Virus record (IMG/VR): IMGVR_UViG_3300029590_000173
Span: 1 to 8,429 of that record
DNA: 8,429 nt
Reading direction: 5' to 3' (one strand)
Source of the DNA: a virus
Lineage: Duplodnaviria; Heunggongvirae; Uroviricota; Caudoviricetes
Below the pieces are notes generated by a model, which saw only the letters and a list, made by a program, of their open reading frames with translations, ran no database searches and was not told the DNA's origin. Position 1 is the first letter of the stretch; each line of letters opens with the position of its first letter. Below, piece after piece: positions 1 to 8,429 of this stretch. The translations under genes were made by a program, and so were the position numbers.

Positions 1-17
1 AAGTTGGCAGCATCACC
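1..17 (-). mobile_element. Terminal 17 bp of a second IS1 copy (left inverted repeat, reverse-complemented); the body of that copy lies upstream of the window
   Basis: Bases 1-17 (AAGTTGGCAGCATCACC) are the exact reverse complement of bases 2473-2489 (GGTGATGCTGCCAACTT), the left end of the complete IS1 in this window. Only 17 bp are visible, so full versus solo end cannot be decided. Confidence 0.7.
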
Positions 18-288
18 CGAAATCACTTCATCAAGCACGTGTGTTGATGAGTACTTCAGGATCGGGTCGACGATCAAAACTGACCGGGTAATAGAACTGG
101 ATGGGGTAACTTACCCATATGTTACAATTGACGTTTCTTCTAAGTCGCATCCGTTCTATACAGGCAAACTGAGAACTGTTGCTTCAGAAGGTAATGTTGC
201 ACGCTTTACCCAGCGTTTTGGGCGTTTTGGGCGTTTTGGGCGTTTTGGGCGTTTTGGGCGTTTTGTTGATGCGAAAAAAGGCGGCTGA
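18..288 (+). CDS. rpmE2: 50S ribosomal protein L31 type B (RpmE2/YkgM-like), 3' fragment with a C-terminal (GRF)n expansion; 5' end abuts the IS1 end
   Basis: The translation ...[62 protein letters not shown]...KKGG matches my recollection of the non-zinc L31 paralog YkgM over about 65 residues. The stop is TGA at 286-288. The frame stays open back through the IS1 end to base 1, so the true start is not in the window. No rpmJ2/ykgO-like gene follows. Confidence 0.75.
214..265 (+). repeat. Perfect tandem repeat of the 9-bp unit CGTTTTGGG, 5 full copies plus a 7-bp partial copy, in frame within the L31B coding sequence
   Basis: Counted directly: units at 214-222, 223-231, 232-240, 241-249 and 250-258, then CGTTTTG at 259-265. 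The repeat encodes RFG/GRF repeats. Confidence 0.95.
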
Positions 289-589
289 TTTCGCCGCAAA
301 GGTGCGTTTGACAATTTTAAAACGGACCGGACAGAGAGAGCCTGCACCTGAATATACTGAGGTAGCCCGTCCCTCCGGGGCGTGCAGATGATCCCGTCAC
401 CAGAAGATTGCGGACCTCTCTGAAAACCAGTACATTACGCGCGGGTGCCTTTCGGCTGACGGCTGGAAGGATTACCTGAAGGCCGGATGTGGAAAGGCCC
501 CGGAAAACATCTCTGTTTAGCCGAGGCCCTAATCTACATACCTTTAGCAAGTAGAAGGTTAGCGCCTCTTTGAAAAAGGAGCAAGCGCT

Positions 590-730
590 ATGCCGCAAAA
601 AACGATCATCGTGAGCATTTTATGCTTAACCATGTTGTTGACCGTCTGGATGATACATCGTTCACCATGTGAATTCAGACTTAACATCATGTGGTCAGAA
701 TTTGCGGCGTTCTTGCAGTGTAAACCGTAA
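590..730 (+). CDS. Small hydrophobic protein (46 aa), Hok/Gef-family-like type I toxin candidate
   Basis: The ORF ATG 590 to TAA 728-730 was not in the supplied track because it is below the length cut-off. Translation: MPQKTIIVSILCLTMLLTVWMIHRSPCEFRLNIMWSEFAAFLQCKP. AGGAG at 577-581 sits 8 nt before the ATG. It has one N-terminal transmembrane segment followed by R-S-P-C-E-F-R and S-E-F-A-A-F, which resemble the Hok motifs R-K-x-L-C-E-I-R and E-V-A-A-F as I recall them. A GC-rich hairpin and an intrinsic terminator follow. Confidence 0.5.
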   Translation: MPQKTIIVSILCLTMLLTVWMIHRSPCEFRLNIMWSEFAAFLQCKP

Positions 731-824
731 GAAACCGCAGCGGGGGTGAAAGCCCCCGCTATCCGGTTGCCGAAGGTTCGGTCGAAAGCCGCACCCGTGC
801 ATGCAAGTGACAAAGAAAAAACAA

Positions 825-858
825 AGCCCGCAGCGTAAAAACTGCGGGCTTTTTTATT
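825..858 (+). terminator. Rho-independent terminator downstream of the hok-like ORF
   Basis: Stem AGCCCGCAG (825-833), loop CGTAAAAA, stem CTGCGGGCT (842-850), followed by TTTTT-ATT. Confidence 0.65.
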
Positions 859-896
859 CACATACCGAAGGTGTGGTAACTGCCTGGGTTCAGACC

Positions 897-921
897 AAAA
901 AAAGCCCCATAAAATGGGGCT
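897..921 (-). terminator. Rho-independent terminator for leftward (minus-strand) transcription, convergent with the plus-strand terminator
   Basis: On the minus strand: AGCCCCA, loop TTTTA, TGGGGCT, then TTTTTTT (the plus strand shows an A-run at 897-903). It lies about 300 nt downstream of the minus-strand operon end at 1217. Confidence 0.55.
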
Positions 922-1067
922 GAAGATTCTGTAAGGAATTTCACAGCAATGAGATTCTAGTCTCTTCCAATGATATATGAGTCTTCAGCCTGAATCAATG
1001 GGGCATGACTGTGAATCCACCGACGATCAAAACTTGCACAATGCCTGAAGTTGAGTTAGAAAAGTAC

Positions 1068-1128
1068 CGGGCGCGATATCCGGTTTATTTTTTGTTGCTG
1101 TGTTTTGCCTCGTGCCGGATATCGCGTC
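1068..1128. repeat. Imperfect 15-bp inverted repeat (GGGCGCGATATCCGG ... CCGGATATCGCGTCC) separated by a 31-nt T-rich spacer
   Basis: Arms at 1068-1082 and 1114-1128 are reverse complements at 14 of 15 positions. Each arm contains GATATC. Function unknown; possible large hairpin or protein-binding site at the GC/AT transition. Confidence 0.5.
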
Positions 1129-1216
1129 CACCGTCTTTCTGATGATTCTTATGAAATCGTACTTTATTGATTTACTGCCATCCTGGTTTGTCTTTTTATG
1201 TTCATTATTGCGACAG

Positions 1217-1612
1217 TCATTTCCTGTTTCTGGTGATGTTTTGATAAAAGTGAAAGAATAAAACGATCATTGCAGAAGGTATTGCTAAAACCATACATAT
1301 CATTATATAAACAAGATGAAAATGATATATACCATAAGACCAGAAAAAAGGTTTTTTCCAGAATGATATGGATGTGTATTTTAGTGTAATTGTTTTTGTC
1401 AGGTATATTGAACAAGGAAGAGCCAGGCCACTGAGTATCAGAAATAAGTCAACTTTTATCGATGCTTCTGTTGGTGTGTCATATATAAGATGCAATATGG
1501 ATATTATAATGGGGCACATTCCCCACAGGATATTTTTGAAATAGAATTTCCGGTTCATATGTTTATGCTCTTTGGTTTTATCCCGGGAATTGGCGCTTTG
1601 TTTTTTATTCAT
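1217..1612 (-). CDS. Hypothetical multi-pass membrane protein (131 aa, about 3 predicted transmembrane helices), low-GC, second gene of a two-gene operon
   Basis: Track ORF. The start overlaps the stop of the upstream ORF by 8 nt (ATG at 1612-1610 versus stop at 1607-1605). Hydrophobic stretches include ILWGMCPIIISILHLIY, VDLFLILSGLALPCSIYL and YGIYHFHLVYIMICMVLAIPSAMIVLFF. An alternative start at the internal Met (codon 18) is possible. No family recognised. Confidence 0.55.
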   Translation of the reverse strand: MNKKQSANSRDKTKEHKHMNRKFYFKNILWGMCPIIISILHLIYDTPTEASIKVDLFLILSGLALPCSIYLTKTITLKYTSISFWKKPFFWSYGIYHFHLVYIMICMVLAIPSAMIVLFFHFYQNITRNRK

Positions 1613-2276
1613 GAACGTTTTCGTTGTTTAATAACCATGGGGTATTATGATTATCCTTTATTTTTGATATGTAATTGTCAATAGTGGATTTCGTTTCATT
1701 ATTGTGGTTATAGTAATCATGAAGAGTGCAAAACACATCATCTTTTATTGTGGCGATTAATGGGGCTTGTGTGAGGGTAAAATATAAAGAACGATTACTT
1801 AGTGTCCTGAAATAAATTTTTTCGCCAATGACCAGATCGGTGTTCATTATATTGTAGCCTATTTCAAATATATTGTTTGATGGCATGTGTAATACATATG
1901 TGGGGTATTTGTTGTGTTTTTTCATTAAATAATAAATAAAATCAGATACAGGCATCTGTTTTAGTTTTTTTTGCATCTTCCTTATGTGTTGTGACATTAA
2001 TATCATTTTCGAGAGAATGCATAAGAGACTAAACAAGAGATTAAATACTATGTTCAGTACTATCAGAGTAACAAACAGGCCAATGCTCCTTAGCGCTGAA
2101 AATATATTGTCATTGTAAATATACTGGAATGTATATCCGGCTGATAAAAATGCCAATATATATAACACTATGTCTGTTTTATTTCGCTTTTTTATTTTGT
2201 AGGTTATTGCTGATTTTAAGAATAAGATGGCAATAAGAGCAGTGATAACCCAGAAAAATATAACGGAAACTTCCAT
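1605..2276 (-). CDS. Hypothetical membrane protein (223 aa): three N-terminal transmembrane helices plus a ~130-aa Asn/Lys/Tyr-rich soluble C-terminal domain; low-GC; first gene of the operon
   Basis: Track ORF. ATG at 2276-2274 with a weak AAGG upstream. Transmembrane segments around residues 3-20, 36-54 and 65-88. GC content is about 28%, against roughly 50% in the flanking DNA. No family recognised. Confidence 0.6.
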   Translation of the reverse strand: MEVSVIFFWVITALIAILFLKSAITYKIKKRNKTDIVLYILAFLSAGYTFQYIYNDNIFSALRSIGLFVTLIVLNIVFNLLFSLLCILSKMILMSQHIRKMQKKLKQMPVSDFIYYLMKKHNKYPTYVLHMPSNNIFEIGYNIMNTDLVIGEKIYFRTLSNRSLYFTLTQAPLIATIKDDVFCTLHDYYNHNNETKSTIDNYISKIKDNHNTPWLLNNENVHE

Positions 2277-2326
2277 AATTATACCTTTATCGTGTTTTCA
2301 GGGAGGTAATTTATCATTGTGCTGAT

Positions 2327-2346
2327 ATGCATGTAAATACATGCAT
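2327..2346. promoter_or_regulatory. Perfect 20-bp palindrome ATGCATGTA-AA-TACATGCAT, 51-70 bp upstream of the 223-aa membrane-protein gene; candidate operator in its promoter region
   Basis: The 9-bp arms are exact reverse complements with a 2-bp spacer. It lies in the 196-bp AT-rich gap between the ORF start (2276) and the IS1 left end (2473). Confidence 0.45.
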
Positions 2347-2527
2347 TATCTGTTTCTTATATTCTTTTTATGAAGTTACTGATTAATTTATATTAAAACA
2401 ACACATTCATAATGAAATCAACATGTTCATATGGTTGACGGCAGATTTCTCTTTTTGTTAACCTGCATCTGCGGTGATGCTGCCAACTTACTGATTTAGT
2501 GTATGATGGTGTTTTTGAGGTGCTCCA

Positions 2528-2803
2528 GTGGCTTCTGTTTCTATCAGCTGTCCCTCCTGTTCAGCTACTGACGGGGTGGTGCGTAACGGCAAAAGCACCG
2601 CCGGACATCAGCGCTATCTCTGCTCTCACTGCCGTAAAACATGGCAACTGCAGTTCACTTACACCGCTTCTCAACCCGGTACGCACCAGAAAATCATTGA
2701 TATGGCCATGAATGGCGTTGGATGCCGGGCAACCGCCCGCATTATGGGCGTTGGCCTCAACACGATTTTCCGCCATTTAAAAAACTCAGGCCGCAGTCGG
2801 TAA
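2528..2803 (+). CDS. insA: IS1 InsA protein (transposition inhibitor and N-terminal part of the InsAB' transposase)
   Basis: The 91-aa translation [43 protein letters not shown]... is the canonical InsA with its zinc-finger Cys motifs. Confidence 0.95.
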
Positions 2804-3225
2804 CCTCGCGCATACAGCCGGGCAGTGACGTCATCGTCTGCGCGGAAATGGACGAACAGTGGGGATACGTCGGGGCTAAATCGCGCCAGCGCTGGCTGTT
2901 TTACGCGTATGACAGGCTCCGGAAGACGGTTGTTGCGCACGTATTCGGTGAACGCACTATGGCGACGCTGGGGCGTCTTATGAGCCTGCTGTCACCCTTT
3001 GACGTGGTGATATGGATGACGGATGGCTGGCCGCTGTATGAATCCCGCCTGAAGGGAAAGCTGCACGTAATCAGCAAGCGATATACGCAGCGAATTGAGC
3101 GGCATAACCTGAATCTGAGGCAGCACCTGGCACGGCTGGGACGGAAGTCGCTGTCGTTCTCAAAATCGGTGGAGCTGCATGACAAAGTCATCGGGCATTA
3201 TCTGAACATAAAACACTATCAATAA
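2722..3225 (+). CDS. insB: IS1 InsB reading frame (expressed as the InsAB' transposase by a -1 frameshift at the A6C site)
   Basis: The track ORF translation ...[44 protein letters not shown]... is canonical IS1 InsB. The frameshift site lies at 2779-2785. Confidence 0.9.
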
Positions 3226-3240
3226 GTTGGAGTCATTACC

Positions 3241-3586
3241 TGAAGCGTTAATGCATGATGCAACAGAAGCGTATTGCCAGGACATCCCTGCTCCACTGAA
3301 ACGCCTTCTTCCTGACTATAAACGGATGGAAGAAAAAATAGACGCCGTAATCCGTGAGAAATACGGGTTACCTCCTGTTATGAGCACGCCAGTGAAATAT
3401 GCCGATCTCATTATGCTGGCAACCGAACGTCGCGATCTCGGGCTTGATGATGGCTCTTTCTGGCCTGTACTGGAAGGTATCCCGGCGACAGAGATGTTCA
3501 AAGTTATTCCACTGTCACCAGGCCATGCCTACGGGATGTTTATGGAACGTTTTAACGAGTTATCGGAGTTACGCAAATGCGCATGA
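3241..3586 (+). pseudogene. 3' remnant of an HD-domain phosphohydrolase-like prophage gene, decapitated by the IS1 insertion
   Basis: The reading frame runs uninterrupted from inside the IS1 right end, and the apparent start at 3227 is IS1 sequence. The remaining translation begins PEALMHDATEAYCQDIPAPLKRLLPDY..., which carries an HD-type metal-binding motif (H-D-x-x-E-x-x-x-x-D-I-P). The N-terminal half is missing. Confidence 0.5.
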
Positions 3587-3939
3587 ATGTTTTCGAAATG
3601 GAAGGGTTTCTTCGCGGGAAATGTGTACCACGAGATCTGAAAGTGAATGAAACAAATGCTGAGTACCTGGTACGTAAATTCGATGCGCTTGAAGCTAAAT
3701 GTGCGGCACTGGAAAACAAAATAATACCAGTGTCAGCTGAACTGCCGCCAGCAAATGAAAGTGTTCTGTTATTTGATGCTAACGGAGAAGGCTGGCTAAT
3801 TGGCTGGCGTTCTCTCTGGTACACCTGGGGACAAAAAGAAACCGGAGAATGGCTGTGGACATTTCAGGTCGGGGACCTTGAAAACGTCAATATCACTCAC
3901 TGGGCAGTAATGCCGAAAGCACCGAAGAATAAAAAATGA
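3577..3939 (+). CDS. Prophage protein with a C-terminal Trp-rich domain resembling DUF551
   Basis: Track ORF with GGAG 8 nt upstream; it overlaps the previous stop. The C-terminus GEGWLIGWRSLWYTWGQKETGEWLWTFQ...ITHWAVMPKAPK fits the Trp-rich phage domain I recall as DUF551 (ending THWMPLP-like). Confidence 0.5.
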   Translation: MRMNVFEMEGFLRGKCVPRDLKVNETNAEYLVRKFDALEAKCAALENKIIPVSAELPPANESVLLFDANGEGWLIGWRSLWYTWGQKETGEWLWTFQVGDLENVNITHWAVMPKAPKNKK

Positions 3940-4139
3940 GCGTGATAAAAACTCATACAGGAATTGTTATCACCCGAGACGGTCCGCAGGTAAAAAAACT
4001 GCACCAGACAAAGCGGATGTGGGTCGTCGGAAAAAACGAGTTTTACCACAAAGAAACCGGACGCCGCCACTTTGCAGAAAATACTCGCCGCCGACTGCTG
4101 ATCGATACCATCAAGCCTATCGAGGTGAAGCATGTTTAA
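3936..4139 (+). CDS. Hypothetical prophage protein (67 aa)
   Basis: Track ORF. Its ATG overlaps the upstream stop (ATGA), typical of translationally coupled phage operons. No family recognised. Confidence 0.4.
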   Translation: MSVIKTHTGIVITRDGPQVKKLHQTKRMWVVGKNEFYHKETGRRHFAENTRRRLLIDTIKPIEVKHV

Positions 4140-4371
4140 ACAGAACGAAAAATCTATCGCTCAAATTGCTGAGTATATCCCGCGTGCGTGCCGGGATATG
4201 CAGTTGCAGGAAGCCAAAGCACGCCTGGAGAAAAAAATTGCGCTCTATATCGATGACGGCTGTGATGCCGCCGTTCTTAACGCGGCGTTCGCGCCAGCTC
4301 TTAACAGTCATACGCGAAAGTCTTTTTTTTCGTGCATCGCAGCGCAGATCCGTAAAGGAGGCAACCAGTGA
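4132..4371 (+). CDS. Hypothetical prophage protein (79 aa)
   Basis: Track ORF. Its start overlaps the upstream stop (ATGTTTAA) and its stop overlaps the next gene's GTG start. No family recognised. Confidence 0.4.
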   Translation: MFKQNEKSIAQIAEYIPRACRDMQLQEAKARLEKKIALYIDDGCDAAVLNAAFAPALNSHTRKSFFSCIAAQIRKGGNQ

Positions 4372-4967
4372 GCAACATTAACTATCAGGTACTGCGTGAA
4401 AAGGCAGAGAAAGCAACTAAAGGAAGCTACATCGTAGGGCATACATCTGTTAACCAACACGGCAATTTAACAGGAGTTTTTGTTTGTCAAAAATGGAAAG
4501 GAGAACCCGGTGGCGTAATTGCAGAATGTCACGTTAACTGCCTGGTTGAAACAGATGCTCAGGCTTATGCAAACGCTGAATTCATAGCAGAGGCTAACCC
4601 GGCTACCGTGCTGGCACTGCTGGATGAACAGGAAAGAAACCAGCAATACATCAAACGCCGCGACCAGGAGAACGAGGATATTGCGCTAACGGTAGGGAAG
4701 CTGCGCGTTGAGCTTGAGGAGACAAAATCAAAACTCAACGAGCAGCGCGAGTATTACGAGGGAGTTATCTCTGATGGGTGCAAGCGTATTGCTGAACTGG
4801 AAGCGCGGGAAGTTCAATTACCGACTCGCTACGACCTTCGATATGGACACCCGATAAATGCAGATGAGCGACAAGTCATGATACCTAAAGAAAATGGCAG
4901 TTGGCTTTACCTGATTGACCTAGAACACGCATTACGCGTCGCTGACATTCGCATCAAAGGAGAGTGA
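4368..4967 (+). CDS. Ead/Ea22-like prophage accessory protein (199 aa)
   Basis: GTG start with a strong AAGGAGG 6 nt upstream. The N-terminus MSNINYQVLREKAEKATKG... and the central coiled-coil region match my recollection of lambdoid Ead/Ea22-like proteins encoded between int/xis and the recombination genes. Confidence 0.55.
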   Translation: MSNINYQVLREKAEKATKGSYIVGHTSVNQHGNLTGVFVCQKWKGEPGGVIAECHVNCLVETDAQAYANAEFIAEANPATVLALLDEQERNQQYIKRRDQENEDIALTVGKLRVELEETKSKLNEQREYYEGVISDGCKRIAELEAREVQLPTRYDLRYGHPINADERQVMIPKENGSWLYLIDLEHALRVADIRIKGE

Positions 4968-4968
4968 T

Positions 4969-5484
4969 ATGGCGTTAACACACCACGAACTCTGTCAGAT
5001 TGCGTACAAGTTCCTTAAGCGCAACGGGTTCAAGGTTTGCTTTCATGACCGCTTTGTTGCTGTAACCAGTACCGGAGAACAGCCAGATGCTATGGGATTC
5101 AGAAATTCAGCATCATGCCTGATAGAGGCGAAGTGTTCTCGTGCTGACTTGTTGGCAGATAGAAAAAAGCGTTTCCGTAAAAATCCCTCACTTGGCATGG
5201 GCGACTGGCGATTCTTTATTAGTGAGCCGGAAATTATTTCAGTTGAGGATTTACCTCCCGGCTGGGGATTACTTCACGTTGTTAACGGAAGAGTACGGAA
5301 AGTACATGGATGGCCCAGGGGTAATTGCTGTTGGGGTAATCCTGACGATAAGCCATTTACTGGGAATAAGCAGGTTGAATGCGATTACATGTTATCTGCA
5401 TTAAGGCGCATGGAGTTGAGAGGGCACCTTAATGAAATATATGACGGTGTGATTGTTAATAAGAAAGAAGGAAACGCGGCATGA
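4969..5484 (+). CDS. Hypothetical prophage protein (171 aa); possible PD-(D/E)xK nuclease fold
   Basis: AGGAG 6 nt upstream; starts 1 nt after the Ea22-like stop. The sequence contains ...GEQPDAMGF...CLIEAKCSRADL..., which is compatible with a PD-x(n)-E-x-K catalytic motif. This is a motif-level inference only. Confidence 0.35.
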   Translation: MALTHHELCQIAYKFLKRNGFKVCFHDRFVAVTSTGEQPDAMGFRNSASCLIEAKCSRADLLADRKKRFRKNPSLGMGDWRFFISEPEIISVEDLPPGWGLLHVVNGRVRKVHGWPRGNCCWGNPDDKPFTGNKQVECDYMLSALRRMELRGHLNEIYDGVIVNKKEGNAA

Positions 5485-6239
5485 TCACTATTACCAAAGG
5501 GCGACTGCTGACAATCAAGCAGTGGCGCGAAACATACGGACCGGGTAGCAACGTTGTACTGCCAGCAGAAGAAGCGGAAGAACTGGCACGAATTGCTCTG
5601 GTATCGCTGGAAGCAGAGCCGGTGGCAAAGATTATAGCTCATTACCCATTAGGAGTTGACGTAGGCAAACAAAAGTTCGTACAGGCCATTGGAGAGCTTC
5701 CTGACTTTGGCGGATATCTATTTGCCGCCCCGCCAGCGCCGGTAGTGCCGGAAGAAGCAACTCCGGAAAACGTAGAAATGCTCTCTGGCTATGTTTCCAC
5801 GTACAAATTAACCGATAGCGAGCGCGATATTGCTGCCGAAATATGGAACGCCTGCCGCACCGCCATGCTTCAGTCCGGAAACTTTCGGGAAAGCAAGAAT
5901 TCGTCAACCAATAATTTTCGGGAAATCCCGGAAGCGTCAACCAGCTCTCCGGTAACTCCGGCTCTTCTGCCTGGTGGTTTCACCATTGAGGAGGCGAAGG
6001 AATTACATGAAGACCTGGTACGCAGCCACATAAGCAAGGCCTTAAGTGGCGAAAAGATGAAAAAGAAAGATCGCGATGCTGATTTGCGCTGGATTCATGG
6101 CGTTATAGTTCAGGCAGCGTGGTTTGTAAAAGCATCACTGGAGCAGAATGCACTATCGGGCAACTCTCCGGTAACTCCGGATGGTTGGATAAGCTGTAGT
6201 GAGCGAATGCCGGACGACAGGCAGGAGGTGAATCAATGA
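5481..6239 (+). CDS. Hypothetical prophage protein (252 aa) with internal short repeats and a C-terminus that looks like the start of a DUF551-type domain
   Basis: ATG overlaps the upstream stop (ATGA) with GAAGGA upstream. It contains exact 17-bp direct repeats at 5945-5961 and 6164-6180 (encoding SPVTP) and ends ...SPVTPDGWISCSERMPDD before the stop at 6237-6239. Confidence 0.5.
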   Translation: MITITKGRLLTIKQWRETYGPGSNVVLPAEEAEELARIALVSLEAEPVAKIIAHYPLGVDVGKQKFVQAIGELPDFGGYLFAAPPAPVVPEEATPENVEMLSGYVSTYKLTDSERDIAAEIWNACRTAMLQSGNFRESKNSSTNNFREIPEASTSSPVTPALLPGGFTIEEAKELHEDLVRSHISKALSGEKMKKKDRDADLRWIHGVIVQAAWFVKASLEQNALSGNSPVTPDGWISCSERMPDDRQEVNQ

Positions 6240-6319
6240 GCTGGCCTGATGCAATCGTAACTCTGGGGGTGGTATTCGCAGCAGCGTTTGTTGTGTTCTC
6301 GATTTGTCGATGGGGATAA
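6236..6319 (+). CDS. Small single-transmembrane peptide (27 aa, MSWPDAIVTLGVVFAAAFVVFSICRWG); candidate host-targeting small membrane peptide
   Basis: Not in the track because it is short. AGGAGG at 6222-6227 sits 8 nt before ATG 6236. The ATG overlaps the upstream stop (ATGA), and the stop TAA at 6317-6319 lies 4 nt before the next ATG (6324). Confidence 0.4.
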   Translation: MSWPDAIVTLGVVFAAAFVVFSICRWG

Positions 6320-6323
6320 CCAC

Positions 6324-6566
6324 ATGTTCGCTTTGATTCAACGCGGTCAGATATACACGGACAGAGCCGGATACCCCGTGGTGATTACTCGCATCACTGA
6401 GCACTCAGTGTTCTTTCGACGGGTGGACGGACGATCCGGGCGGGTACGCATTGGTGAGTTAAACTGCCTGTTCGAACATATTGACCACCAGGAGTACCGC
6501 AAAATTCTCGCGGACACTGAGCAGGAAAAGCACCTGAAAAAATTACGAGCCATAAAAAGGAAGTAA
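6324..6566 (+). CDS. Hypothetical prophage protein (81 aa from ATG 6324; the track's TTG start at 6288 is less likely)
   Basis: Track ORF 6288..6566. The ATG at 6324 follows the small-peptide stop by 4 nt. Translation: MFALIQRGQIYTDRAGYPVVITRITEHSVFFRRVDGRSGRVRIGELNCLFEHIDHQEYRK... No family assigned with confidence. Confidence 0.45.
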   Translation: MFALIQRGQIYTDRAGYPVVITRITEHSVFFRRVDGRSGRVRIGELNCLFEHIDHQEYRKILADTEQEKHLKKLRAIKRK

Positions 6567-6569
6567 AGA

Positions 6570-6704
6570 ATGAATAAAGCATTTGAACGATGGGTCCACC
6601 AGCGTTACGGCAATCACTATGACCTGACGCGAGATGTTGATGGCTTCTACTGTCGTGAAGTTGTGAAGCGAATGTTTGAAATGTGGTGCCACTGCCGTGG
6701 ATGA
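6570..6704 (+). CDS. Small Cys/His-containing protein (44 aa, MNKAFERWVHQRYGNHYDLTRDVDGFYCREVVKRMFEMWCHCRG)
   Basis: Not in the track because it is short. AAGGAAG lies about 7 nt upstream, and the ATG is 4 nt after the previous stop. C-x(13)-C-H-C could be a metal-binding knuckle. Weak call. Confidence 0.3.
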   Translation: MNKAFERWVHQRYGNHYDLTRDVDGFYCREVVKRMFEMWCHCRG

Positions 6705-6722
6705 AAGTTTTATGAGGTTGGC

Positions 6723-6977
6723 ATGCAGACAATCATCTATCAGATAACCCCCAGCAAATGGTGTACGGAGAGAGTCCTTATTGCATCAACAGGGCTAAAG
6801 CCCGGCACCATCGAGCGGGCCAGAAGAAAGTCATGGATGCAGGGAAAAGAATACCGCCATTACGCTGTAGAAGGTGATCCTGGGCATTACAGTGAATGCC
6901 TGTACAACATCGAAGAAATTATGCGATGGATCGAAAACCAGAAACAACCAGGTGCCAAAAATGCAAGTTCCGGTTAA
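6723..6977 (+). CDS. xis: Excisionase-like (Xis) protein, 84 aa
   Basis: It sits immediately upstream of int and is co-oriented with it, the canonical xis position. The N-terminus MQTIIYQITPSKWCTERV... resembles the putative-excisionase family of enterobacterial prophages as I recall it. Confidence 0.5.
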   Translation: MQTIIYQITPSKWCTERVLIASTGLKPGTIERARRKSWMQGKEYRHYAVEGDPGHYSECLYNIEEIMRWIENQKQPGAKNASSG

Positions 6978-7010
6978 CCTGTTAATGCTCCTGGACGTCT
7001 GGGAGGTTTA

Positions 7011-8315
7011 ATGAGTAACGTATCATACCCGACAGGCGTTGAAAACCATGGAGGATCACTCCGTATATGGTTTCACTATAATGGCAAACGTGTCAGAGAA
7101 AACCTCGGTGTTCCTGACACCGCCAAAAACCGGAAGATCGCAGGTGAACTTCGCACTTCCGTTTGTTTTGCAATCAGAATGGGGAGTTTCGACTACGCTA
7201 CACAGTTCCCTAATTCCCCTAACCTGAAACACTTTGGTCTGGGAAAAAGAGAGATAACCGTTAAGGCACTTTCGGAAAAATGGTTGGACCTTAAGAAAAT
7301 TGAGATTTGTGCGAATGCACTTAATCGTTACCAGTCAGTAATTAAAAACATGTTGCCTATGTTGGGTGAGAAAAAACTGGTTTCATCCATAACAAAAGAG
7401 GATTTACTTTTCGCAAGGAGAGATTTGTTGACCGGTTACCAAAAGCTTTCTAATGGAAAGATTTCTTCCATAAAAGGGCGCTCAGTGGTCACAGTAAACT
7501 ACTATATGACAACCATAGCTGGAATGTTTCAATTTGCAACAGATAATGGTTATACCTCAGGAAACCCATTTAACGGTCTGGCCCCCTTAAAAAAGTCCAA
7601 GGTAAAACCAGATCCTCTCACCCGTGACGAATTTATTCGTTTTATTGAGGCTTGCCGTCATCAACAAACAAAAAACCTGTGGATTCTCGCTGTATACACG
7701 GGTATTCGTCACGGGGAGCTGGTATCGCTGGCATGGGAAGATATAGATCTTAAAGCAAGGACTATAACCATCCGTAGGAATTATACAAAACTTGGCGAAT
7801 TCACTCCACCAAAAACCGATGCTGGCACCGGAAGGACAATTCATCTGGTTCAACCAGCTATTGATGCTCTTAAAAGTCAGGCGGAAATGACCATGCTTGG
7901 AAAGCAACATTCTGTAGAGGTAAAGCAGAGGGAATATGGGAGAAGNNNNNNNNNNNNNNNNNNNNNNNNNNNNNNNNNCACTTTTGTTTTTAGTCCTCAG
8001 GTAATAAAACAGCGGCAGTTTTCCGGACCGCACTATAAGGTTGACTCCATCAGGGAGTCATGGACAAGTATCTTAAAACGCGCAGGTCTGAGACACAGAA
8101 AATCGTACCAATCCAGGCATACTTATGCATGCTGGTCACTTGCCGCTGGAGCTAATCCTAGTTTTATCGCAAGCCAGATGGGCCACACAAACGCACAAAT
8201 GGTATTCAATGTTTACGGAGCATGGATGAAAGACAACAATCACGAACAGATAGAACTCCTTAACAAAAGACTATCTGAAAGTGTCCCATGTATGCCCCAT
8301 AAGAAAGCTGGGTAA
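7011..8315 (+). CDS. int: Phage integrase, tyrosine site-specific recombinase (lambda Int family); the reading frame spans a 33-N gap
   Basis: GGGAGG Shine-Dalgarno before ATG 7011. The C-terminal catalytic region carries ...LAVYTGIRHGELVSLAWEDIDL... (Arg box) and ...HTYACWSLAAGANPSFIASQMGHTNAQMVFNVYGAWM... (H-x-x-R ... Y motifs). Ns at 7946-7978 fall inside the gene. Confidence 0.9.
   Translation: MSNVSYPTGVENHGGSLRIWFHYNGKRVRENLGVPDTAKNRKIAGELRTSVCFAIRMGSFDYATQFPNSPNLKHFGLGKREITVKALSEKWLDLKKIEICANALNRYQSVIKNMLPMLGEKKLVSSITKEDLLFARRDLLTGYQKLSNGKISSIKGRSVVTVNYYMTTIAGMFQFATDNGYTSGNPFNGLAPLKKSKVKPDPLTRDEFIRFIEACRHQQTKNLWILAVYTGIRHGELVSLAWEDIDLKARTITIRRNYTKLGEFTPPKTDAGTGRTIHLVQPAIDALKSQAEMTMLGKQHSVEVKQREYGRXXXXXXXXXXXXTFVFSPQVIKQRQFSGPHYKVDSIRESWTSILKRAGLRHRKSYQSRHTYACWSLAAGANPSFIASQMGHTNAQMVFNVYGAWMKDNNHEQIELLNKRLSESVPCMPHKKAG
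7946..7978. other. Run of 33 N (assembly gap or masked bases) inside the integrase gene
   Basis: Seen directly. Because 33 is a multiple of 3 the frame appears preserved, but the true length and content are unknown. Confidence 0.99.
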
Positions 8316-8360
8316 AATAAAAACTTGCAAAATCAATTAGTTTACCCTTAATCCCTGTCA
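8316..8360. other. Prophage-chromosome junction (attL-type) region between the integrase stop and the resumption of mlrA-like sequence
   Basis: Position immediately 3' of int, and the point where the downstream frame begins to read as MlrA (about 8354). The exact core cannot be defined without the other junction. Confidence 0.35.
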
Positions 8361-8429
8361 CGTTACGCGCGTGGCAGAGGCGTTACGGATTGCTGAAACC
8401 GCAACGGACAGACGGCGGTCATCGGCTGT
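8354..8429 (+). pseudogene. mlrA: Fragment of the MerR-family curli regulator gene mlrA (yehV), helix-turn-helix region; its 5' end is replaced by prophage sequence and it runs off the window
   Basis: The in-frame translation [25 protein letters not shown] matches the MlrA N-terminal HTH region as I remember it ([42 protein letters not shown]...). The upstream in-frame codons ([11 protein letters not shown]) do not match and contain no start codon back to the stop at 8318-8320. Confidence 0.6.

Follow-up and report, generated by a model that had tools for sequence, protein, structure and literature searches.

An overlooked homologue of colicin E1/Ia immunity proteins and a rare inner-membrane protein in the cargo region of an Escherichia coli integrative and conjugative element

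The DNA considered here, referred to throughout as the window, is a stretch of 8,429 nucleotides recorded as viral (Caudoviricetes; IMG/VR record IMGVR_UViG_3300029590_000173, positions 1 to 8,429). Near its left end, a segment of low GC content holds two open reading frames (ORFs) on the minus strand, ORF1 and ORF2, and the question raised by this locus is whether the two form an undescribed two-gene defence system, as the original prediction proposed. The GC trough on which that proposal drew is borne out, with values of 28-38% in 200-bp windows across positions 1101-2500 and 42-59% in the flanks, and the description of the segment as foreign, low-GC DNA with two membrane-protein genes on the same strand is upheld. 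The evidence presented below moderately favours a different answer: the segment would be cargo of an integrative and conjugative element (ICE), comprising an orphan homologue of the colicin E1/Ia immunity proteins (ORF2) and a stand-alone inner-membrane protein (ORF1), with no obligate pairing between the two and no conserved operator.

The extent of ORF2 has to be settled before its relatives can be recognised. ORF1 (1605..2276, minus strand) encodes 223 amino acids, as first described, and is labelled a hypothetical protein by the Prokaryotic Genome Annotation Pipeline (PGAP). For ORF2, the longest minus-strand reading spans 1217-1612 and 131 amino acids, and this was the gene originally given. 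Four diverged E. coli variants of the block were aligned, consisting of the window lineage, a variant from enterohaemorrhagic E. coli (EHEC) and two other ICE variants. An A-run in the EHEC variant carries a 1-nt indel that puts the ATG at 1612 out of frame, and in the P0004-type ICE variant (L003-L008) ORF2 is preceded by no in-frame ATG. Among the variants, the spacer between the two ORFs (1559-1604) is the least conserved stretch of the block, at 72-96% nucleotide identity, and conservation is highest, at 94-98%, in the DNA that starts with the ATG at 1558. Since the ATG at 1612 is not kept, the spacer is the least conserved stretch and homology to known proteins begins at the ATG at 1558, the 131-residue reading is over-extended. 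ORF2 (1217..1558, minus strand) is instead a protein of 113 amino acids that starts at the conserved ATG at 1558, and at that length it is intact in all four variants; the upstream extension (1559..1612, minus strand), made up of the end of ORF1 (1605-1612) and the spacer, is not conserved as coding sequence. The purine-rich AAGAG at 1572-1568, 9 nt 5' of the ATG, is a putative Shine-Dalgarno sequence for ORF2. Because ORF2 starts at 1558 and not at 1612, the two genes lie 46 nt apart, and the translational coupling once envisaged through an 8-nt overlap falls away with the overlap, which is not conserved. ORF1 and ORF2 probably share a transcript that starts in the AT-rich region 5' of ORF1.

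Read from this start codon, ORF2 is, on sequence comparison, a divergent and overlooked full-length homologue in the colicin E1/Ia immunity family. Reference immunity genes were taken from the ColE1 and ColIa plasmids, where each is convergent to its own colicin gene. By BLASTP, ORF2 matches the colicin Ia immunity protein (111 amino acids; L016) with an expectation (E) value of 1e-8 and the colicin E1 immunity protein (113 amino acids; L015) with an E value of 6e-8, and both alignments are full-length and colinear from residue 1. Profile-profile comparison with hhalign against the E1/Ia immunity proteins gives 98.2% probability and an E value of 3.8e-14 over 102 of 113 columns. When 72,556 plasmids were searched by tblastn, more than 1000 annotated colicin Ia/E1 immunity genes were returned that cover 87-95% of the ORF2 query at about 30% identity, and some GenBank records already call fragments 'colicin immunity protein'. 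The three hydrophobic segments of ORF2 (residues 7-25, 33-54 and 75-106), in agreement with the roughly three transmembrane helices first noted, fit a family whose members have about 96-115 amino acids and three membrane-spanning segments. Among the variants, the ratio of nonsynonymous to synonymous substitution rates (dN/dS) of ORF2 is 0.26-0.58. This intact and conserved gene is nonetheless left uncalled by PGAP in all three RefSeq genomes inspected, namely S19-651, O111 11128 and G6/7 (L001, L002 and L030). The earlier statement that neither gene could be recognised therefore no longer holds for ORF2, a homologue of the E1/Ia immunity proteins, but does stand for ORF1, which is still unassigned to any family of known function. 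Likewise, the fallback suggestion of a toxin/immunity pair was half right, in that ORF2 belongs to the immunity family of the pore-forming colicins.

No similarity to a colicin pore domain was detected in the window, in the related loci or in approximately 100 kb spanning the whole ICE of S19-651, and a degraded colicin gene, either convergent with ORF2 or anywhere in the ICE, was sought and not found. Because neither a colicin gene nor a remnant of one is present in the window, the related loci or the ICE, ORF2 is regarded as an orphan immunity homologue and not as part of a colicin operon. By analogy with the E1/Ia immunity family, ORF2 would most likely be a three-helix inner-membrane protein that blocks the channel of an incoming, E1/Ia-like pore-forming colicin by binding to its channel domain once this is inserted in the membrane. 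Bacteria carrying the ICE may in this way be shielded from colicin-producing competitors without bearing the cost of toxin production.

The distribution of the block points to the element on which it travels. A 1.3-kb block comprising the module is found in 589 of 5426 complete E. coli genomes (about 11%), almost always as one chromosomal copy, and its records fall into 13 with at least 99% identity, 572 with 90-95% and five with 80-90%. In S19-651, which is 100% identical, and in G6/7, the block lies in the cargo region of an ICE where the order is TraG_N, a small ORF, a paralogue of ribosomal protein L31, Hok, ORF2 and ORF1 on the opposite strand, an integrase-domain protein, ArdC and further genes. 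The host element, an SPI-7/PFGI-1-type ICE of E. coli, is about 82 kb long and sits at tRNA-Phe; its genes include those for ParAB, TraD, SigA, a type IVB pilus and a DnaB helicase of the island type. A 94%-identical variant is located in an island of EHEC O111, between the urease and tellurite-resistance genes, with IS66 debris and a traT remnant on its flanks. This urease/tellurite island is known in the literature as OI-43/48 or SpLE1 (PMC3893438, PMC7545054). Positions 1-2472 of the window are a fragment of the variable ICE cargo region, and the EHEC tellurite/urease island holds a decayed copy of the block.

Turning to ORF1, this is an inner-membrane protein that belongs to a small, rare and uncharacterised family in Enterobacterales. 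A word-indexed search of 5.8 billion proteins retrieved relatives only in E. coli, at identities of at least 72%, and an exhaustive hmmsearch of 1.84 billion cluster representatives brought the family to 27 proteins, of which 15 are near-full-length (198-228 amino acids) and the rest are shorter fragments. The hosts identified are Atlantibacter (four species-level genomes), Serratia (two) and Enterobacter asburiae. The family is marked by the motifs MDRSLxFFY at the N-terminus, WYVLYxPSxNxxEIGxN, GKKFYxKTLxGR, FICxLxxFY and TKxxVxNYIxxIKxxxxEPW; across an alignment of 29 sequences, L159 and Y202 are invariant, and E138, N142, R162, I206, P213 and W214 are nearly so. Comparison of ORF1 and 21 family members with Pfam, NCBIfam, PHROG and PADLOC yielded only sub-threshold noise from the transmembrane helices, and the sole PHROG match of ORF1 is weak (E 6.7e-4) and lies in the transmembrane region. 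A literature search by protein accession, and by OI-43/48 together with colicin, returned nothing on the ORF1 or ORF2 genes.

The anticipated architecture of ORF1, with hydrophobic helices at the N-terminus and a structured C-terminal domain, is seen both in its hydrophobicity and in an AlphaFold2 model. The model built from the 29-sequence alignment has a predicted local distance difference test (pLDDT) score of 81.7, mostly above 90 in the C-terminal domain; an earlier model from a four-sequence alignment (pLDDT 46.8) was unusable and was discarded. Helices at about residues 3-30, 33-55 and 61-107 are followed by a helix, five strands and two helices, and the conserved C-terminal domain (about 108-215, approximately 115 residues) is of the alpha/beta type. 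The protein contains a hydrophobic stretch of 38 residues, and its positive charges are clustered, with five lysines or arginines after helix 1 and eight after helix 3. From hydrophobicity, the positive-inside rule and the model, the topology is probably N-out with three helices and a cytoplasmic C-terminal domain. Fold searches with ORF1 detected no structural relative. Matches to polyubiquitin in a profile search of PDB sequences were dismissed as chance, since a short KTLTGK beta-hairpin motif is multiplied by the ubiquitin repeats and no single stretch is significant. The stretch concerned, at about residues 150-170 (window positions of about 1767-1829), carries the GKKFYxKTLxGR motif and resembles the first beta-hairpin of ubiquitin (MQIFVKTLTGK), which is probably a chance local match.

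The two parts of ORF1 evolve differently. The dN/dS ratio is 0.11-0.45 in the C-terminal domain and 0.54-0.96 in the transmembrane part, and judged by these ratios the former is under purifying selection and the latter is nearly unconstrained. ORF1 also diverges much faster than the backbone of the ICE that carries it: it is 78% identical between ICEs whose backbone proteins are 93-100% identical, and in a more distant ICE it is 41% identical against 68-96% for most backbone proteins, although the adjoining integrase-domain protein is likewise only 43% identical. The GC content of ORF1 is about 29% in the ICE copies and 41-47% in the chromosomal copies, whose hosts have 46-58%. When the E. coli forms of ORF1 and ORF2 were compared with viral contigs, no matches were obtained. 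Matches in IMG/VR to the Atlantibacter-type homologue were examined as possible phage genes and rejected, as they are host DNA that adjoins the point of attachment of a P2-like prophage. Such a prophage (CI, CII/CP76 and integrase) is integrated, in several metagenomes, at the 3' end of rplS, directly upstream of the Atlantibacter-type homologue (L048 1-4846 and equivalent IMG/VR contigs), and the boundaries of the viral contigs around such prophages overshoot into host DNA.

Whether ORF1 and ORF2 belong together can be judged from the places in which relatives of ORF1 occur. The homologue is solitary between argA and recD in Serratia and solitary between rplS and ydcA in Atlantibacter and its relatives, where it is syntenic across the genus, and further solitary homologues occupy other, unrelated sites. 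In a related ICE, the corresponding slot is taken by a 42%-identical homologue (P0014), downstream of which lies an unrelated ORF for a soluble protein of 105 amino acids, and no immunity-like sequence was present at any retrieved locus of a distant ORF1 homologue (P0014 at 42% identity, the others at 19-33%). ORF1 and ORF2 occur together only in E. coli variants of the block whose DNA identity is 88% or more. Co-occurrence of the two genes is consequently confined to one recently spread block of DNA, which the original prediction itself would have counted against a conserved pair. Against PADLOC-DB v2, neither ORF1 nor ORF2 matches a defence family at E <= 1. With no such match, and with ORF1 homologues elsewhere being solitary or accompanied by another downstream gene, the proposal of a new two-gene system is not supported, and ORF1 and ORF2 are not an obligate functional pair. 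In the same pairs of variants, the synonymous divergence of ORF2 is about one third of that of ORF1 (p = 0.003-0.02 in three of four comparisons), a difference that suggests partly separate histories of the two genes. ORF2 is the best-conserved DNA of the block, which could reflect a recombination break or an additional constraint on the DNA.

Several points weigh against this account of an orphan immunity homologue beside an independent membrane protein. The whole block is present in 588 of the 590 E. coli records, and ORF1 and ORF2 share a strand at a spacing of 46 nt, both of which fit a functional pair. The Pfam model PF03526 scores ORF2 at 14.7 bits (E 0.027) where the gathering cut-off is 25, and no NCBIfam model matches it; PF03526 has only 55 positions, and its cut-off is a database criterion that does not define the protein family. 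For ORF1, the role is drawn from architecture and context, and the topology is a prediction from hydrophobicity, the positive-inside rule and the model. A protective function of ORF2 against a colicin is putative, suggested by analogy with its family. If the two genes did act together, they could be an effector and its antidote in abortive infection, addiction or toxin-immunity, where the long hydrophobic helix of ORF1 would harm the inner membrane and ORF2 would restrain it until phage infection or loss of the element. Such an arrangement would suit the gene order, with effector before immunity gene, and the constant association of the two in E. coli; it would also suit the 38-residue hydrophobic stretch of ORF1 and the mode of action of ORF2's family, which binds the membrane-inserted helices of pore-formers. 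The cargo region also has hok/sok and, in other variants, ccdAB and restriction-modification genes. It is nevertheless unlikely, because every distant homologue of ORF1 is without an ORF2-like partner and yet is intact, in some cases conserved across a genus, and because the positional homologue in the related ICE adjoins a different and soluble ORF. The lack of PADLOC matches and the partly separate histories suggested by synonymous divergence argue in the same direction.

For ORF1 by itself, the best guess, held with low confidence, is a membrane-anchored protective or exclusion factor that would act on something entering through the inner membrane. This role is ranked first; fast divergence, constraint on the C-terminal domain and low GC content fit such a factor. 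A more ambitious version, in which the family is a new single-protein, membrane-anchored determinant of exclusion or defence (against phage or conjugative DNA or a toxin) or ORF1 is coupled to the immunity homologue as a new effector/antidote module, is improbable. Were ORF1 a single-gene anti-phage factor, incoming phage components would be detected or stopped at the membrane by its cytoplasmic domain, leading to superinfection exclusion or abortive infection, and ORF2 would be independent. Its status as low-GC cargo of a mobile element (29% against about 50%), its patchy occurrence across unrelated loci, its fast divergence with a relaxed or diversifying transmembrane part (dN/dS up to 0.96) and the restriction-modification and toxin-antitoxin genes in the cargo region of one variant are all consistent with this role. 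It is doubtful all the same, as no PADLOC family matches, the only PHROG match is the weak one in the transmembrane region and the family was not found in phage genomes, the IMG/VR matches being host DNA beside a P2-like prophage; moreover, the genus-wide synteny and partly ameliorated GC content of the Atlantibacter copy are more like those of a resident cellular gene. Quite unlikely is the possibility that ORF1 is an entry-exclusion determinant of the ICE, analogous to TraS/Eex, that is, an inner-membrane protein of the recipient recognised by a TraG-like protein of the donor, with ORF2 as unrelated cargo. ORF1 does occupy a fixed position in the ICE, at most about 3 kb from the TraG_N gene, with traT or a traT remnant nearby in two variants, and it diverges far faster than the backbone. 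The Eex proteins of SXT/R391 have a topology with a cytoplasmic C-terminal domain, which the predicted topology of ORF1 resembles, and the differences in TraG_N among ICE variants cluster in the last 50 or so residues. Yet homologues of ORF1 exist as solitary chromosomal genes outside conjugative elements, and a tblastn search of all PLSDB plasmids gave self matches only, with no similarity to plasmid exclusion genes. In addition, the TraG_N tails of L024 and L026 differ although their ORF1 homologues are identical, so the tail does not track the type of ORF1 as expected of an exclusion pair. Finally, the block could be functionless hitch-hiking DNA, a set of remnants in decay that H-NS silences and the ICE carries with it. 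In keeping with decay, PGAP never calls ORF2, many protein entries for both ORFs are truncated or frameshifted, the homologue in Atlantibacter subterranea is split into two ORFs by a frameshift, and IS1 has removed part of the upstream region in the window. This is very improbable given that each of the four diverged E. coli variants has kept both ORFs intact and that purifying selection acts on both, as measured by the dN/dS ratios of ORF2 and of the C-terminal domain of ORF1.

The TraG_N gene shows a pattern of its own in the loci compared (L001 5869-7371, L005 10108-11610, L024 9521-11017 and L026 3674-5197). The variants differ almost exclusively in the last 50 or so residues, where 16-19 of 25 positions differ within one block, and the variable end of the gene faces the cargo region.

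The remaining element of the proposed operon was its operator. The AT-rich region upstream of ORF1 (2277..2472, minus strand), which is cut off by IS1 at 2473, is 91-98% conserved among the variants. It contains an AAGG ribosome-binding site at 2287-2284 and two promoter-like pairs, one with a -35 hexamer at 2374-2369 and a -10 hexamer at 2350-2345 and the other with a -35 hexamer at 2337-2332 and a TG-extended -10 hexamer at 2313-2308; a promoter scan found 12 sites against 9.0 +/- 3.5 in shuffled sequences, which is not above chance. Overlapping the promoter-like hexamers is the inverted repeat ATGCATGTA-AA-TACATGCAT (2327..2346), whose 9-bp arms flank a 2-bp spacer; the window has no other repeat of this class. 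Among 1000 dinucleotide shuffles of the 196-bp upstream region, 13 contained a repeat with arms of 9 bp or more and a spacer of 6 bp or less; for the entire AT-rich segment, the figure was 96 in 1000. The repeat had been described as a perfect 20-bp palindrome. The inverted repeat is real, but it is built as 9 + 2 + 9, and its central AA is not self-complementary. On the gene strand, the site reads ATGCATGTATTTACATGCAT in the window, ATGCATGTATTTACACACAT in the EHEC variant and AAGCATGCATTTACACACAT in the other ICE variants. The arms match at nine of nine positions in the window lineage only, at seven of nine in the EHEC variant (two mismatches) and at five of nine in the two other ICE variants (four mismatches). 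These three lineages all have CA at the site of the window's TG, which makes the perfect symmetry a derived state. Two adjacent substitutions that 'correct' an imperfect repeat are the classic signature of a quasipalindrome template-switch mutation. The repeat of the window is, by this alignment, a lineage-specific accident in which two adjacent substitutions perfected an imperfect repeat, and its proposed role as a candidate operator is not sustained, as the dyad symmetry is not conserved in the orthologous upstream regions. At the other end of the module, between the Hok region and the 3' end of ORF2, a terminator scan found a GC-rich hairpin (1066..1084) with a T-run on the plus strand and an A-run on the other side, which may be a shared terminator.

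The genes on the left of the module belong to the same cargo. A type-B L31 paralogue (4-288, plus strand; Pfam Ribosomal_L31), cut by the start of the window, and Hok (590-730, plus strand; Pfam HOK_GEF) both travel with the ICE cargo block, and the order of L31, Hok and the module is the same in S19-651, O111 11128 and G6/7. A sok-like RNA (443-600, plus strand; Rfam RF01794) lies upstream of and overlaps the Hok ORF; its score of 47.7 bits (E 5.9e-9) is below the gathering score of 59. The block appears from these matches to carry a hok/sok-type addiction locus. Within the L31 paralogue, positions 213-265 form a perfect 9-bp tandem repeat (GCGTTTTGG x 5.9) that encodes C-terminal GRF repeats, and its copy number varies, the gene having 288 nt in S19-651, 261 nt in G6/7 and 264 nt in O111 11128.

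To the right, homology of the module to all its relatives ends at 2472, where IS1 starts. This insertion sequence (2473..3240, plus strand; InsA 2528-2803 and InsB' 2722-3225; Pfam InsA and DDE_Tnp_IS1) is not part of the module. It shortens the upstream region and links the module to unrelated DNA, the left arm of a lambdoid prophage integrated at mlrA, with a truncated yfdR. The prophage arm (3241-8315), next to mlrA, encodes Ead/Ea22, DUF551, excisionase and integrase (Pfam). The neighbours that the original prediction listed, namely Hok, IS1 and a prophage remnant, are therefore present in the window, but they give no hint of function: the junction of ICE, IS1 and prophage occurs in none of the complete E. 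coli genomes, and the native context is the ICE. In G6/7, the ICE and prophage parts are about 3 Mb apart, with no IS1 at either site. The junction is either a secondary, IS1-mediated rearrangement or an assembly join at a repeat, and it says nothing on function. A run of 33 N at 7946-7978 lies inside the prophage integrase gene (7011-8315), so the source assembly was scaffolded or masked. A gene for a protein of 88 amino acids, WP_016237203.1, which is annotated 5' of ORF1 in S19-651 (L001 10309-10575, minus strand), was considered as a member of the module and set aside, as it has no features and a normal GC content. In the window it is cut by IS1 to its last few codons (2458-2472), and it may be a spurious gene call.

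What follows from these results concerns the two genes separately. ORF2 is a gene missed by RefSeq annotation, and about 11% of complete E. coli genomes carry it. Among these are O157:H7 and O111 EHEC, in which it is part of the tellurite/urease island. If ORF2 protects against a natural pore-forming colicin, it would represent a chromosomal 'immunity gain' trait that could shift the gut fitness of EHEC and ICE carriers, and it would be relevant to the proposed use of colicins against EHEC. ORF1 represents a small protein family that merits a name, and whose fold is predicted with confidence yet unmatched. Neither finding establishes a new kind of system.

Compared with known systems, ORF1 is like TraS of F and Eex of SXT/R391 in being a small inner-membrane protein of a conjugative element that is encoded near a TraG-family gene and diverges fast relative to the backbone. 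Unlike TraS, Eex and ExcA, it has no similarity to plasmid genes, its family has members outside conjugative elements and it does not co-vary with the TraG_N tail. ORF2 shares with the ColIa and ColE1 immunity proteins nearly the same length (113 versus 111 and 113 amino acids), three hydrophobic segments and a low GC content. Its N-terminus, MNRKFYFKNILWG, is colinear with MNRKYYFNN of the Ia immunity protein and MSLRYYIKNILFG of the E1 immunity protein, and a C-terminal C-x-VLAIP motif is common to ORF2 and the ColE1 immunity protein. It differs from them in that identity is just 26-31% and the Pfam score is sub-threshold, and in that it neither adjoins nor converges with a colicin gene, being located instead 3' of an unrelated membrane-protein gene on an ICE. 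The genes for 'colicin E1 family microcin immunity protein' on Klebsiella plasmids and phage-plasmids resemble ORF2 in being solitary E1-family homologues that are carried by mobile elements and have no colicin in their vicinity. They gave the lowest tblastn E values of the non-self relatives (1e-2 to 7e-2, at about 25-27% identity), although they belong to another subfamily (119 amino acids) and another genus and have no ORF1-like gene upstream. Orphan bacteriocin immunity genes on E. coli plasmids are a documented class, and the published plasmid orphans were defined as being more than 99% identical to immunity genes whose toxins are known (PMC12546727); ORF2, in contrast, is far from any immunity gene with a known toxin, lies on a chromosomal ICE or island and is unannotated in RefSeq. 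An island-borne immunity gene, shiD, is found in the aerobactin (iuc/iut) pathogenicity island (reviewed in PMC7545054). Like the published plasmid orphans and shiD, ORF2 is a toxin-less immunity gene on a mobile element, a kind of gene that is read as protection from the toxins of competitors.

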